DNA of 64,000 bases, taken from assembly GCF_003334355.1 (NCBI RefSeq), contig NZ_QOWP01000011.1; one strand, given 5' to 3'. A program made the position numbers and the translations under genes. The DNA comes from Escherichia coli (GTDB lineage: Bacteria; Pseudomonadota; Gammaproteobacteria; Enterobacterales; Enterobacteriaceae). Positions 11,762 to 20,867 of the stretch are shown here, in pieces (within the stretch, counting starts at the first letter, position 1; each line of letters begins with the position of its first letter). The notes beneath the pieces were generated by a model. The model was not told where the DNA came from, ran no database searches, and saw nothing but the letters and a program-made list of their open reading frames with translations.

Positions 11762-12175
11762 TTATTGCTTGATCAGGAAATCGTCGAGGGATTTACCTTG
11801 CTCATCCATTGCTTTTTTGATTACAGCTGGAGTACGGCCTTGGCCAGTCCAGGTTTTAGTTTCGCCGTTTTCGTCAACGTAGCTATATTTTGCCGGACGC
11901 TGAGCACGTTTAGCTTTGGTGCCAGATTTAACGGCAGCAAGGCTATTCAGCAGTTCGTTCGGGTCAATACCGTCAGCGATCAGCATTTCGCGATATTGCT
12001 GCAGTTTACGAGTGCGCTCTTCAACTTCAGCAGCAGCCGCGCTTTCTTCTTCGCGACGTTCGTTAACAACAACTTCTAATTTTTCCAGCATTTCTTCCAG
12101 CGTTTCAAGTGTACATTCTCTTGCCTGCGCACGAAGAGTACGGATGTTGTTCAGAATTTTAAGTGCTTCGCTCAT
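11762..12175 (-). CDS. hns: nucleoid protein H-NS
   Basis: 137-aa [23 protein letters not shown]...TWTGQGRTP recognised as H-NS. Confidence 0.96.
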
Positions 12176-14698: not shown

Positions 14699-17374
14699 TT
14701 AAGCGGATTTTTTCGCTTTTTTCTCAGCTTTAGCCGGAGCAGCTTCTTTCTTCGCTGCAGTTTCACCTTCTACATAATCACGACCGTAGTAGGTATCCAG
14801 CAGAATCTGTTTCAGCTCGGAGATCAGCGGGTAACGCGGGTTAGCGCCGGTGCACTGGTCATCGAATGCATCTTCAGACAGTTTATCCACGTTCGCCAGG
14901 AAGTCTGCTTCCTGAACGCCAGCTTCACGGATAGATTTCGGAATACCCAGTTCAGCTTTCAGCGTTTCCAGCCATGCCAGCAGTTTCTCGATCTTAGCAG
15001 CAGTACGGTCGCCCGGTGCGCTCAGACCCAAGTGGTCGGCAATTTCAGCATAACGACGGCGAGCCTGCGGACGGTCATACTGGCTGAATGCAGTCTGCTT
15101 GGTCGGGTTGTCGTTCGCATTGTAGCGAATAACGTTACAAATCAGCAGGGCGTTTGCCAGACCGTGCGGAATATGGAACTGGGAACCCAGTTTGTGCGCC
15201 ATTGAGTGACATACACCCAGGAAGGCGTTCGCAAACGCGATACCCGCGATAGTCGCTGCACTGTGAACACGTTCACGCGCTACCGGATTTTTAGACCCTT
15301 CGTGGTAGGACGCTGGCAGATATTCTTTCAGCAGTTTCAGTGCCTGCAGAGCCTGACCATCAGAGAACTCAGATGCCAGTACAGAAACATAAGCTTCCAT
15401 GGCGTGAGTTACTGCGTCCAGACCACCGAAAGCACACAGGGACTTCGGCATGTCCATAACCAGGTTGGCGTCGACAATCGCCATATCCGGAGTCAGCGCA
15501 TAGTCTGCCAGCGGATATTTCTGACCAGTAGCGTCGTCAGTTACAACCGCAAACGGAGTGACTTCAGAACCTGTACCAGAAGTGGTGGTGACAGCGATCA
15601 TTTTCGCTTTCACGCCCATTTTCGGGAACTTGTAGATACGTTTACGGATATCCATAAAGCGCAGCGCCAGCTCTTCGAAGTGAGTTTCCGGATGTTCGTA
15701 CATAACCCACATGATCTTCGCGGCGTCCATCGGGGAACCACCACCCAGCGCGATAATCACGTCTGGTTTGAAGGAGTTTGCCAGTTCTGCACCTTTACGA
15801 ACGATGCTCAGGGTCGGGTCCGCTTCTACTTCGAAGAAGACTTCAGTTTCAACGCCTGCTGCTTTCAGTACGGAAGTGATCTGATCAGCATAACCATTGT
15901 TGAACAGGAAGCGGTCAGTCACGATGAGCGCACGTTTGTGGCCATCAGTAATCACTTCATCCAGCGCGATTGGCAGGGAGCCACGGCGGAAGTAGATAGA
16001 TTTCGGAAGTTTGTGCCACAACATGTTTTCAGCTCGCTTAGCAACGGTTTTCTTGTTGATCAGGTGTTTCGGACCAACGTTTTCAGAGATGGAGTTACCA
16101 CCCCAAGAACCACAACCCAGAGTCAGGGAAGGTGCGAGTTTGAAGTTATACAGGTCACCGATACCACCCTGAGACGCTGGGGTGTTAATCAGGATACGCG
16201 CCGTTTTCATTTTCTGACCGAAGTAAGAAACGCGAGCCGGTTGGTTATCCTGGTCAGTGTACAGGCAAGAGGTATGACCGATACCGCCCATAGCAACCAG
16301 TTTCTCTGCTTTTTCTACCGCGTCTTCGAAATCTTTAGCGCGGTACATTGCCAGAGTCGGGGACAGTTTTTCATGTGCGAACGGTTCGCTTTCATCAACA
16401 ACGGTCACTTCACCGATCAGAATCTTGGTGTTTTCTGGTACAGAGAAGCCTGCCAGTTCAGCAATTTTATAGGCTGGCTGACCAACGATAGCCGCGTTCA
16501 GCGCACCGTTTTTCAGGATAACATCCTGAACAGCTTTCAGCTCTTTACCCTGCAACAGATAGCCGCCGTGGGTTGCAAAACGTTCACGTACAGCATCATA
16601 AACAGAGTCAACAACAACAACAGACTGTTCAGAAGCACAGATTACGCCGTTGTCGAAGGTTTTGGACATCAGTACAGATGCAACTGCACGTTTGATATCA
16701 GCAGTTTCATCGATAACAACTGGAGTGTTGCCCGCGCCTACACCGATAGCTGGTTTACCGGAGCTGTATGCGGCTTTAACCATGCCCGGACCACCAGTCG
16801 CGAGGATCAGGTTGATGTCTGGGTGGTGCATCAGTGCGTTAGACAGTTCAACAGAAGGTTGATCGATCCAGCCGATCAGATCTTTCGGAGCACCGGCAGC
16901 GATAGCAGCCTGCAGAACGATATCAGCCGCTTTGTTGGTGGCATCTTTTGCACGCGGGTGCGGGGAGAAGATAATGGCGTTACGGGTCTTCAGACTGATC
17001 AGCGATTTGAAGATAGCAGTTGAAGTCGGGTTAGTGGTCGGAACGATACCGCAAATAATACCGATTGGTTCAGCGATAGTGATGGTACCAAAAGTGTCGT
17101 CTTCAGACAGAACACCACAGGTTTTTTCATCTTTATAGGCGTTGTAGATATATTCAGAAGCAAAGTGGTTTTTGATCACTTTATCTTCGACGATACCCAT
17201 GCCGGATTCGGCAACGGCCATTTTCGCGAGTGGGATTCGAGCATCTGCAGCAGCCAGAGCGGCGGCGCGGAAGATTTTGTCTACTTGCTCTTGAGTGAAA
17301 CTGGCATATTCACGCTGGGCTTTTTTTACACGCTCTACGAGTGCGTTAAGTTCAGCGACATTAGTAACAGCCAT
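14699..17374 (-). CDS. adhE: bifunctional aldehyde/alcohol dehydrogenase
   Basis: 891-aa ORF; N-terminal aldehyde dehydrogenase and C-terminal Fe-ADH domains; Ala/Lys-rich C-terminal tail. Confidence 0.95.
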
Positions 17375-17850
17375 AATGCTCTCCTGATAATGTTAAACTT
17401 TTTTAGTAAATCATCTGCTCGAATACGAGAGTATAGTCAGTGCGGTGATGATTTGCTTAACCTATGAAAATCAAAAGCTTACTCGCGCTCACACTCACTG
17501 TGATTTACTAAAAGAGTTTAAACATTAGAGTTATTATCTCTAATGCGTCACTTCCAGGTGGCGTAAGCAAGATTACTCACTTCTGGGTACTGATTACGTG
17601 ATCCAAATCAAATTTTTGCAAAGCTGACACCTTTCAGCATCGCTTTTCGCCATTATAGCTAACAGTTAATAAATTGTAGTATGATTTGGTGGCTACATTA
17701 GCATGTTTTGCACAACTAGATAACAATAACGAATGATAGCAATTTTAAGTAGTTAGGAGGTGAAAAATGCTGTCAAAAGGCGTATTGTCAGCGCGTCTTT
17801 TCAACCTTATTTATGGCTAACATTATCCGGCTTTTGCTTCGGAGCTAACC

Positions 17851-18498
17851 GTGATTCAGACCTTTTTTGATTTTCCCGTTTACTTCAAATTTTTCATCGG
17901 GTTATTTGCGCTGGTCAACCCGGTAGGGATTATTCCCGTCTTTATCAGCATGACCAGTTATCAGACAGCGGCAGCGCGAAACAAAACTAACCTTACAGCC
18001 AACCTGTCTGTGGCCATTATCTTGTGGATCTCGCTTTTTCTCGGCGACACGATTCTGCAACTTTTTGGTATATCAATTGATTCGTTCCGTATCGCCGGGG
18101 GCATCCTGGTGGTGACGATAGCGATGTCGATGATCAGCGGCAAGCTTGGCGAGGATAAACAGAACAAGCAAGAAAAATCAGAAACCGCGGTACGTGAAAG
18201 CATTGGTGTGGTGCCATTGGCGTTGCCGTTGATGGCGGGGCCAGGGGCGATCAGTTCTACCATCGTCTGGGGTACGCGTTATCACAGCATTAGCTATCTG
18301 TTTGGTTTCTTTGTGGCTATTGCATTGTTCGCTTTATGTTGCTGGGGATTGTTCCGCATGGCACCGTGGCTGGTACGGGTTTTACGCCAGACCGGCATCA
18401 ACGTGATTACGCGTATTATGGGGCTATTGCTGATGGCATTGGGGATTGAATTTATCGTTACTGGTATTAAGGGGATTTTCCCCGGCCTGCTTAATTAA
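17851..18498 (+). CDS. ychE: MarC-family inner membrane protein (UPF0056)
   Basis: 215-aa hydrophobic ORF; position after adhE. Confidence 0.88.
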   Translation: MIQTFFDFPVYFKFFIGLFALVNPVGIIPVFISMTSYQTAAARNKTNLTANLSVAIILWISLFLGDTILQLFGISIDSFRIAGGILVVTIAMSMISGKLGEDKQNKQEKSETAVRESIGVVPLALPLMAGPGAISSTIVWGTRYHSISYLFGFFVAIALFALCCWGLFRMAPWLVRVLRQTGINVITRIMGLLLMALGIEFIVTGIKGIFPGLLN

Positions 18499-18511
18499 TT
18501 CCTTTCAAATG

Positions 18512-18535
18512 AAACGGAGCTGCCATGCTCCGTTT
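18512..18535 (+). terminator. putative ychE terminator
   Basis: aaacggagc / gctccgttt stem 14 nt after ychE stop; weak T-tract. Confidence 0.45.
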
Positions 18536-19235
18536 ACTTCGTCATTATTTTTACTTTGTTCCCGCGCAGTTATCAAAAGCAAAAGGAATAGGTAAAAATA
18601 TTCTTCTCAAATTACAGTTAGTTATAAGGATTTCCTTAACTGCTTCTCCTCACCATCATGTTATTTTCGCCACATCATAATCCTGGGCTTGCTGAAGAAT
18701 AATTGAAATGATATTAGTAATTCCACTGCCTTTGGTAGAGGAAAGTGCTAAATAATAATCAATTGTTAAATTATTGTGCATTTCACTACTGGAACTGTAA
18801 TCAGAAAAGATAGACATGCTTAGCCAATCTCTATTTGATTGAATTGAAAGATGTTTGTTAAGGCATGGATGCAAGCTATAGATTCTGATACGGTCAATAA
18901 AAGAGAATTGCTTAACAATTTTGCAAAATGTATTGGCGAGTAAGAACCGCATTTGGTACTTTCCGGGCAACCGCCAGACGATTCTTTATTGGTAATGAGA
19001 ATAATTAACAATTAAAGAGCGTCGCGAAAGAATAATGTGTCTCGACAGGGGAGACACAGTACGAATCGACATAAGGTGATCGTCTGAATCACCAGAATAA
19101 ATAAAGTCGGTGATAGTAATACGTAACGATAAAGTAACCTGACAGCAGAAAGTCTCCGAGCCTGTGCAGGGTCCCAATCCGGGATTACACATGCTGGTTA
19201 ATACCAGTAATTATAATGAGGGAGTCCAAAAAACA

Positions 19236-20867
19236 ATGACCAACATCACCAAGAGAAGTTTAGTAGCAGCTGGCGTTCTGGCTGCGCTAATGGCAGGGAA
19301 TGTCGCGCTGGCAGCTGATGTACCCGCAGGCGTCACACTGGCGGAAAAACAAACACTGGTACGTAACAATGGTTCAGAAGTTCAGTCATTAGATCCGCAC
19401 AAAATTGAAGGTGTTCCGGAGTCTAATATCAGCCGAGACCTGTTTGAAGGCTTACTGGTCAGCGATCTTGACGGTCATCCAGCACCTGGCGTCGCTGAAT
19501 CCTGGGATAATAAAGACGCGAAAGTCTGGACCTTCCATTTGCGTAAAGATGCGAAATGGTCTGATGGCACGCCAGTCACAGCACAAGACTTTGTGTATAG
19601 CTGGCAACGTTCTGTTGATCCGAACACTGCTTCTCCGTATGCCAGTTATCTGCAATATGGGCATATCGCCGGTATTGATGAAATTCTTGAAGGGAAAAAA
19701 CCGATTACCGATCTCGGCGTGAAAGCTATTGATGATCACACATTAGAAGTCACCTTAAGTGAACCCGTTCCGTACTTCTATAAATTACTTGTTCACCCAT
19801 CAACTTCACCGGTGCCAAAAGCCGCTATCGAGAAATTCGGCGAAAAATGGACCCAGCCTGGTAATATCGTCACCAACGGTGCCTATACCTTAAAAGATTG
19901 GGTCGTAAACGAACGAATCGTTCTTGAACGCAGCCCGACCTACTGGAACAACGCGAAAACCGTTATTAACCAGGTAACCTATTTGCCTATTGCTTCTGAA
20001 GTTACCGATGTCAACCGCTACCGTAGTGGTGAAATCGACATGACTTATAACAACATGCCGATCGAATTGTTCCAGAAGCTGAAAAAAGAGATCCCGGACG
20101 AAGTTCACGTTGATCCATACCTGTGCACTTACTATTACGAAATTAACAACCAGAAACCGCCATTCAACGATGTGCGTGTGCGTACCGCACTGAAACTAGG
20201 TATGGACCGCGATATCATTGTTAATAAAGTGAAAGCGCAGGGCGACATGCCCGCCTATGGTTACACTCCACCGTATACTGATGGCGCAAAATTGACTCAG
20301 CCGGAATGGTTTGGCTGGAGCCAGGAAAAACGTAACGAAGAAGCGAAAAAACTGCTGGCTGAAGCGGGTTATACCGCAGACAAACCGTTGACCATCAACC
20401 TGTTGTATAACACCTCCGATCTGCATAAAAAGCTGGCGATTGCTGCCTCTTCATTGTGGAAGAAAAACATTGGTGTAAACGTCAAACTGGTTAACCAGGA
20501 GTGGAAAACGTTCCTCGACACCCGTCACCAGGGTACTTTTGATGTGGCCCGTGCAGGCTGGTGTGCTGACTACAACGAACCAACTTCCTTCCTGAACACC
20601 ATGCTTTCGAACAGCTCGATGAATACCGCGCATTATAAGAGCCCGGCCTTTGACAGCATTATGGCGGAAACGCTGAAAGTGACTGACGAGGCGCAGCGCA
20701 CAGCTCTGTACACTAAAGCAGAACAACAGCTGGATAAGGATTCGGCCATTGTTCCTGTTTATTACTACGTGAATGCGCGTCTGGTGAAACCGTGGGTTGG
20801 TGGCTATACCGGCAAAGATCCGCTGGATAATACCTATACCCGGAATATGTACATTGTGAAGCACTAA
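19236..20867 (+). CDS. oppA: oligopeptide ABC transporter periplasmic binding protein
   Basis: ATG at 19236 preceded by GAGGGAG; signal peptide MTNITKRSLVAAGVLAALMAGNVALA; 543 aa. Confidence 0.93.
   Translation: MTNITKRSLVAAGVLAALMAGNVALAADVPAGVTLAEKQTLVRNNGSEVQSLDPHKIEGVPESNISRDLFEGLLVSDLDGHPAPGVAESWDNKDAKVWTFHLRKDAKWSDGTPVTAQDFVYSWQRSVDPNTASPYASYLQYGHIAGIDEILEGKKPITDLGVKAIDDHTLEVTLSEPVPYFYKLLVHPSTSPVPKAAIEKFGEKWTQPGNIVTNGAYTLKDWVVNERIVLERSPTYWNNAKTVINQVTYLPIASEVTDVNRYRSGEIDMTYNNMPIELFQKLKKEIPDEVHVDPYLCTYYYEINNQKPPFNDVRVRTALKLGMDRDIIVNKVKAQGDMPAYGYTPPYTDGAKLTQPEWFGWSQEKRNEEAKKLLAEAGYTADKPLTINLLYNTSDLHKKLAIAASSLWKKNIGVNVKLVNQEWKTFLDTRHQGTFDVARAGWCADYNEPTSFLNTMLSNSSMNTAHYKSPAFDSIMAETLKVTDEAQRTALYTKAEQQLDKDSAIVPVYYYVNARLVKPWVGGYTGKDPLDNTYTRNMYIVKH

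Follow-up and report, generated by a model that had tools for sequence, protein, structure and literature searches.

Transcription of oppA starts at two sites, P1 (+1) and P2 (+246), both located by primer extension, and an RNase E site lies at +341 (PMC9988348). The two promoters and the long 5′ UTR are attributed to Igarashi et al. (1997), as cited in PMC9988348. In the oppA leader, the small RNA MicF pairs over +372 to +392/393, which is more than 100 nt before the AUG; the oppA ribosome-binding site is a target of GcvB and Hfq, and Lrp is cited as a transcriptional regulator of oppA (PMC9988348). In Salmonella, the oppA 5′ UTR gives rise to OppX, a sponge for MicF (Matera et al. 2022, as described in PMC9988348); a stable leader-derived fragment is reported to be undetectable in E. 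coli (PMC9988348).

Here we consider a long open reading frame on the opposite strand of the ychE–oppA spacer. All positions refer to the window, by which we mean the whole 64,000-nt stretch of E. coli DNA that was analysed. A first-pass annotation had left the frame as either spurious or an overlooked small protein; our data support the first option and lend no support to the second. We conclude that the 104-codon frame is very probably a chance ORF opposite the known oppA promoters and leader, and not an overlooked gene. The frame itself, its taxonomic restriction, the absence of a coding signature and the pattern of conservation were analysed here, while P1, P2, the RNase E site and the MicF site, together with their numbering, are taken from the literature.

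An open frame in the AT-rich ychE–oppA spacer

The gene order in the window is adhE (−), ychT, ychE (+), the spacer and oppA (+). The spacer runs for 737 nt between the ychE stop codon (18498) and the oppA ATG (19236), and the orthologous spacers, which also lie between ychE and oppA across the Enterobacteriaceae, are about 665–880 nt long, mostly 745–780. As the first-pass annotation had reported, the spacer is AT-rich and holds an uninterrupted minus-strand frame of 104 codons with a TTG start; its coordinates are confirmed, and the first ATG is codon 7. G+C content is 0.373 in the spacer and 0.343 in the ORF, and 0.46–0.55 in the flanking genes. Of the 55 ORFs in the window that stand alone and reach 100 codons, this ORF has the lowest value. 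The features concerned are as follows.

18499–19235, unstranded: ychE–oppA intergenic spacer, 37% G+C, length and position conserved across Enterobacteriaceae
18512–18535, plus strand: hairpin just past the ychE stop codon, probably the ychE terminator; −14.9 kcal/mol, z = −4.55, followed by UUUACUU
18656–18970, minus strand: open frame, very probably a chance ORF; 104 codons from TTG, with an ATG at 18952 (codon 7) that gives 98 aa

The hairpin at 18512–18535 was not flagged by a simple terminator scan. Upstream of ychE, a 17-codon ORF at 17767–17820 (+) corresponds to ‘protein YchT’ (b4771) in MG1655 and in PGAP-annotated genomes, and sits inside a 36-aa GTG ORF (17760–17870) of the ORF list.

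The frame faces the oppA promoters and leader

Window positions of P1, P2 and the RNase E site were obtained by anchoring the published numbering on the MicF site, with MicF taken from the MG1655 record. Nucleotides 1–25 of MicF form a predicted duplex with 19096–19117, a site that is nearly invariant across the family. On this numbering, the P1 and P2 starts would lie at about 18725 and 18970, and RNase E would cut at about 19065. The start coordinates (to within about ±2 nt) and the hexamer assignments are deduced. The plus-strand features are then as follows.

18659–18724, plus strand: oppA promoter P1 region; −35 TTGCTG at 18689–18694, −10 TATTAG at 18712–18717, start at about 18725
18725–19235, plus strand: oppA 5′ leader from P1, about 511 nt, placed by the PMC9988348 numbering and the MicF duplex
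18739–18778, plus strand: conserved block spanning roughly +15 to +54 of the P1 leader, 73–89% identical to the window in 70 non-Escherichia loci
18899–18967, plus strand: oppA promoter P2 region; −35 TTGGCG at 18933–18938, extended −10 TGgTACTTT at 18954–18962, start at about 18970
19036–19058, plus strand: leader hairpin (z = −4.37) just upstream of the RNase E site (about 19065, +341)
19096–19117, plus strand: MicF pairing site, duplex with MicF nt 1–25 (PMC9988348)

For comparison with relatives, one genome per species was used; loci were found by a YchE search and the spacer was extracted, giving 75 species. The DNA from 18659 to oppA aligns family-wide at 65–80% identity, and conservation begins abruptly at 18659. 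In the 70 non-Escherichia loci, it is arranged in blocks: 18659–18720, 18739–18778 and 18899–18967 are conserved at 73–97%, whereas the middle of the ORF (18779–18898) is conserved at only 19–60%. Base by base, both promoters have conserved −35 and −10 hexamers with a variable spacer between them. P2 is preceded by a conserved upstream block, its inter-hexamer spacer is poorly conserved, and conservation collapses right past 18967. The conserved blocks match the published promoters P1 and P2, whose starts fall at about 18725 and 18970, and the ORF is therefore antisense to the P1 promoter and to the first 246 nt of the 511-nt leader. The “conservation” of the N- and C-terminal parts of the ORF in other Escherichia arises because the two promoters are conserved there.

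The first-pass annotation had allowed that the block might be nothing but the oppA 5′ leader and promoter, and this is what we find. The region lies directly upstream of oppA on the same strand, is syntenic, and contains P1 and P2 with their −35 and −10 elements as well as the MicF site.

Several further elements were noted in this region. The block at 18739–18778 may be either an operator or an RNA element; it forms a modest hairpin (z = −2.4) and contains TAAATAATAATCAA, which has two mismatches to the FNR consensus and is not above chance. At the sharp upstream edge of family-wide conservation, 18659–18674 (+) reads TGTTATTT-TCGC-CACA, with two conserved half-sites around a variable centre; its midpoint lies about 58 nt upstream of P1. 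The sequence is similar to a CRP-type dimer site, with two mismatches, although the match alone is not above chance. A Fur-box-like 19-mer, GGTAATGAGAATAATTAAC, lies at 18991–19009 (+), about +22 to +40 of P2 and outside the ORF; it has four mismatches, and 3 of 300 shuffles contained an equally good match, which places it above chance. Consensus scans for FNR and CRP gave no matches above chance. The hns gene is itself in the window, at 11762–12175 (−), about 6.5 kb from the spacer; we take its product to be H-NS from the translated N-terminus.

Published binding data also bear on the spacer. For ychE>oppA, Table 3 of a genomic SELEX study gives a peak of RpoD holoenzyme and a site for H-NS (PMC3946193). 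An FNR ChIP-seq peak assigned to oppA, among operons described as Fur-repressed, is centred at 1,298,775 in U00096.2 (PMC3688515), which converts to about position 18805 of the window. Together with the citation of Lrp, they are consistent with a promoter region under dense regulation. The first-pass annotation had suggested that the ORF might be silenced by H-NS. An H-NS site is indeed reported in the spacer, but that report refers to the entire oppA promoter region and provides no evidence of a silenced gene; the site fits control of oppA and not a hidden gene.

How often long open frames occur in the spacer

We asked how often such a frame is expected. An ORF of at least 104 codons occurred in 2.7% of 5000 dinucleotide-preserving shuffles of the 738-nt spacer, a rate that is not rare given the many long spacers in the genome, so that the frame is only mildly unexpected. 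Of the 75 orthologous spacers from other species, 16 have an ORF of 104 codons or more elsewhere, in non-homologous positions and frames and for the most part on the minus strand. The ychE–oppA spacer gains and loses long open frames. The earlier argument that a long frame is less expected by chance in DNA of this composition therefore holds mildly by the shuffles (2.7%), but the empirical rate (16/75 spacers) is higher.

A related pattern was seen further downstream. Many orthologous spacers (L008, L015, L019, L021, L039, L041, L056, L060, L063, L065, L070, L079, L080 and others) have open frames of 90–158 codons opposite the second, downstream half of the oppA leader (window 18855–19235, minus strand); by strand, there are 26 loci with minus-strand and 5 with plus-strand frames. 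This half of the leader is purine-rich on the plus strand (AT skew +0.18 to +0.26), and stop codons would therefore be rare on the complementary strand. Within the window, 38 other ORFs of at least 100 codons are nested in real genes; one of these is a 605-codon shadow ORF antisense to adhE (15206–17023, +).

The frame is broken in relatives and lacks a coding signature

We considered whether the frame could instead be a young, E. coli-specific gene of de novo origin, in which an antisense transcript would encode a protein of 98 or 53 aa and might be mostly silenced by H-NS. Consistent with this, the frame is intact in most E. coli genomes. Among the lineages compared, E. coli alone keeps it. 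We counted the alleles at codon 42 with a 34-nt allele-specific search of 5426 complete E. coli genomes, and found Ser or Leu in about 84%. The sites at which the frame varies or is interrupted within the species are as follows.

18846, unstranded: polymorphic site at codon 42; G = Ser (about 4200 genomes), A = Leu (361), T = stop (438–439)
18748–18751, unstranded: CTAA target of the IS5 (insH21) copy in K-12 MG1655, which interrupts the ORF at about codon 74
18882–18888, unstranded: target duplication of ISSen4 (IS3 family) in NCTC122, inside the ORF

The stop allele, present in 438–439 of the 5426 genomes (about 8%), includes the whole O157:H7 group, with EDL933; in O157:H7 and in FDAARGOS_946, codon 42 has changed from TCA to TAA. 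Neither the nonsense allele nor the insertions in MG1655 and NCTC122 come with any sign of compensation, which argues against a maintained gene. Since IS5 splits the frame in MG1655, expression data from that strain are uninformative for the frame. Insertion sequences have entered this spacer repeatedly: besides IS5 and ISSen4, JM83 carries an IS1 at 19104–19112, inside the MicF pairing site and outside the ORF. About 83 of 5425 matching records lacked a contiguous spacer match of at least 80%, and 13 of 5525 matching places for this chromosomal spacer were on records typed as plasmids, which could be misassigned contigs or chromosomal segments on plasmids.

Outside E. coli, the frame is not kept. 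In all five non-coli Escherichia lineages, the homologous frame contains stops and/or frameshifts; the spacer of the nearest of them is 93.8% identical, yet the frame has a stop at codon 21. It is also broken in all 70 non-Escherichia loci, each with 2–5 frameshifting indels and a median of three stops, and within the homologous stretch the median length of the longest minus-strand ORF is 37 codons. The first-pass annotation had named a broken frame in close relatives as evidence against a gene, and the five Escherichia lineages, O157:H7 and the insertions in MG1655 and NCTC122 all show such breaks.

A protein-coding sequence would be expected to leave a signature at the third codon position, and we compared the ORF with ychE in the same seven Escherichia genomes. 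Variable sites at the three codon positions number 35/44/40 in the ORF, whereas they number 18/2/104 in ychE. Among 11 E. coli strains, the ORF has 16 variable sites, distributed 5/7/4 over the codon positions; about 12 of the changes are nonsynonymous or nonsense and 5 are synonymous. The density of polymorphism is 5.1% within the ORF and 4.0% elsewhere in the spacer. Across the family, the three codon positions are conserved at 0.606/0.589/0.604, and the G+C content of the ORF is similarly flat at 0.33/0.35/0.34. Values of dN/dS are 0.4–0.6 for the ORF, on a handful of sites, versus 0.03–0.05 for ychE. The value against the nearest outgroup, 0.6, is below 1, although the counts are tiny and, with part of the frame under promoter constraint, both dN and dS are lowered. 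The check on conservation and dN/dS that the first-pass annotation had proposed thus gives no indication of coding selection: codon periodicity is absent and the frame is unconserved.

We also considered the 53-aa form that begins at an internal ATG, and rejected it: this ATG is lost in the nearest outgroup (L004), and there is no relaxation at third positions (0.806/0.72/0.724 by codon position).

The product has no relatives beyond Escherichia/Shigella in the databases searched. An exhaustive phmmer search of 1.84 billion representative proteins gave 23 matches and no homologue outside Escherichia/Shigella, and a word-indexed search of 5.8 billion proteins gave 40; in both searches, all matches were Escherichia/Shigella-type variants or fragments of the ORF. 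A match labelled Enterobacter hormaechei, with 94% identity to the query, is taken to be a mislabelled Escherichia sequence. The ORF protein matched no family in Pfam, NCBIfam or PHROG, and a single-sequence AlphaFold2 model had a mean pLDDT of 43 with no confident fold, which is weak evidence, as single-sequence models are often poor. The protein search that had been suggested for the 104-aa product therefore returned its own variants, with no domain and no confident fold.

We also looked at signals for expression of the frame. A weak Shine-Dalgarno-like GGA, read from the sequence, lies about 8–10 nt 5′ of the ATG and would favour translation. Upstream of the ORF on the minus strand, however, a simple consensus scan found no promoter-like match, and the inverted repeat at 19036–19058 reads there as a terminator-like hairpin; such scans are not decisive. 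The reported H-NS site in the spacer would be in keeping with a silenced gene. Overall, we consider a de novo gene very unlikely. A weaker form of the idea also strikes us as highly improbable: a very young E. coli-restricted proto-gene that arose by chance opposite the P1 promoter and leader of oppA, and whose antisense transcripts would be translated at a low level, for instance once H-NS silencing is lifted. If it did exist, such a proto-gene would be dispensable, having already been lost again in O157:H7 and MG1655.

Automatic annotation of the frame is inconsistent

The frame is called as a gene by PGAP in many genomes. The 98-aa form is listed as a ‘hypothetical protein’ (WP_001211520, WP_001211521, WP_001211524 and WP_001211514) in many E. 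coli genomes, and 53-aa forms with the internal start also exist (WP_000051910 and WP_000021850). The first-pass annotation had given no annotated gene here; this is true of the curated K-12 MG1655 record, but not of RefSeq in general. In ATCC 25922 and KFu014, PGAP calls the 53-aa form even though the long frame is intact in both, and the call is missing from several genomes with the same sequence, one of which is 100% identical to the window across the spacer. Inconsistent calls with two different start codons are typical of a marginal gene-caller score. A literature search found no mention of the four 98-aa accessions. WP_001211520 and its variants are a gene-caller prediction for which experimental support was not found.

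Other readings of the minus strand

The frame could also be incidental to a minus-strand non-coding antisense RNA that modulates oppA P1 and P2, either through transcriptional interference or by forming a duplex with the leader. AT-rich DNA bound by H-NS is commonly transcribed in antisense, and the consensus scan found a single minus-strand promoter-like match within the ORF (18780→18752), although this is not direct support. The region as a whole has four promoter-like matches against 2.3 ± 1.5 in shuffles, which is not clearly above expectation, and its conserved blocks are laid out as plus-strand promoters. A permissive Rfam scan of 17300–19400 returned no RNA family other than a plant miRNA model at E = 0.22, a chance match. 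We therefore regard a regulatory antisense RNA as a distinctly improbable account of the locus.

The last alternative, a remnant of a horizontally acquired, AT-rich and H-NS-silenced gene inserted between ychE and oppA, would suit the low G+C content (0.34) and the reported H-NS binding (PMC3946193), but is extremely improbable, as synteny is preserved in 75 Enterobacteriaceae species and their spacers are alike in length and AT-richness (0.34–0.45 G+C), there is no homologue anywhere and no match to a phage family, and the alignment from 18659 to oppA across the family means that nothing has been inserted. An acquired island was likewise rejected on account of the family-wide synteny and the similar spacer lengths, and the distribution is not that of a patchy insertion.

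Discussion

The data are best explained by a chance ORF opposite the oppA control region. The AT-rich block is the regulatory region of oppABCDF, with two sigma-70 promoters, P1 and P2, and a P1 leader of about 511 nt in which lie the RNase E site, the MicF pairing site and the oppA ribosome-binding site. At both ends, the ORF overlaps promoter blocks whose DNA is conserved and which by chance lack stop codons in that frame. The variable middle, about 120 nt long, is also stop-free and in register by chance, in the E. coli lineage alone. The frame is not kept by selection, and most likely no functional protein is made.

The finding matters little for biology, as the oppA control region is well studied; the region is already known, and the ORF is a spurious one that annotation pipelines call in some genomes. 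The finding is of practical use for annotation: the WP_001211520 family and its variants look like a false-positive call over the two oppA promoters. More generally, conserved non-coding blocks such as promoters can lend a spurious ORF protein-level “conservation” at its ends.

Comparison with known systems leads to the same view. The published oppA promoters P1 and P2 and the 5′ UTR correspond to the same locus, with the same strand relations as here, and we see no substantive difference. The leader is homologous to the source of OppX in Salmonella, and its MicF site is conserved across the Enterobacteriaceae; OppX, however, is a plus-strand RNA and is unrelated to the minus-strand ORF. The ORF itself most closely resembles the chance ‘shadow’ ORFs found opposite functional sequence, with which it shares a long frame, the lack of a codon-position signature and an unconserved frame. 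The present one differs in facing a promoter and leader and not a coding sequence, and consequently it stands alone and attracts gene callers.
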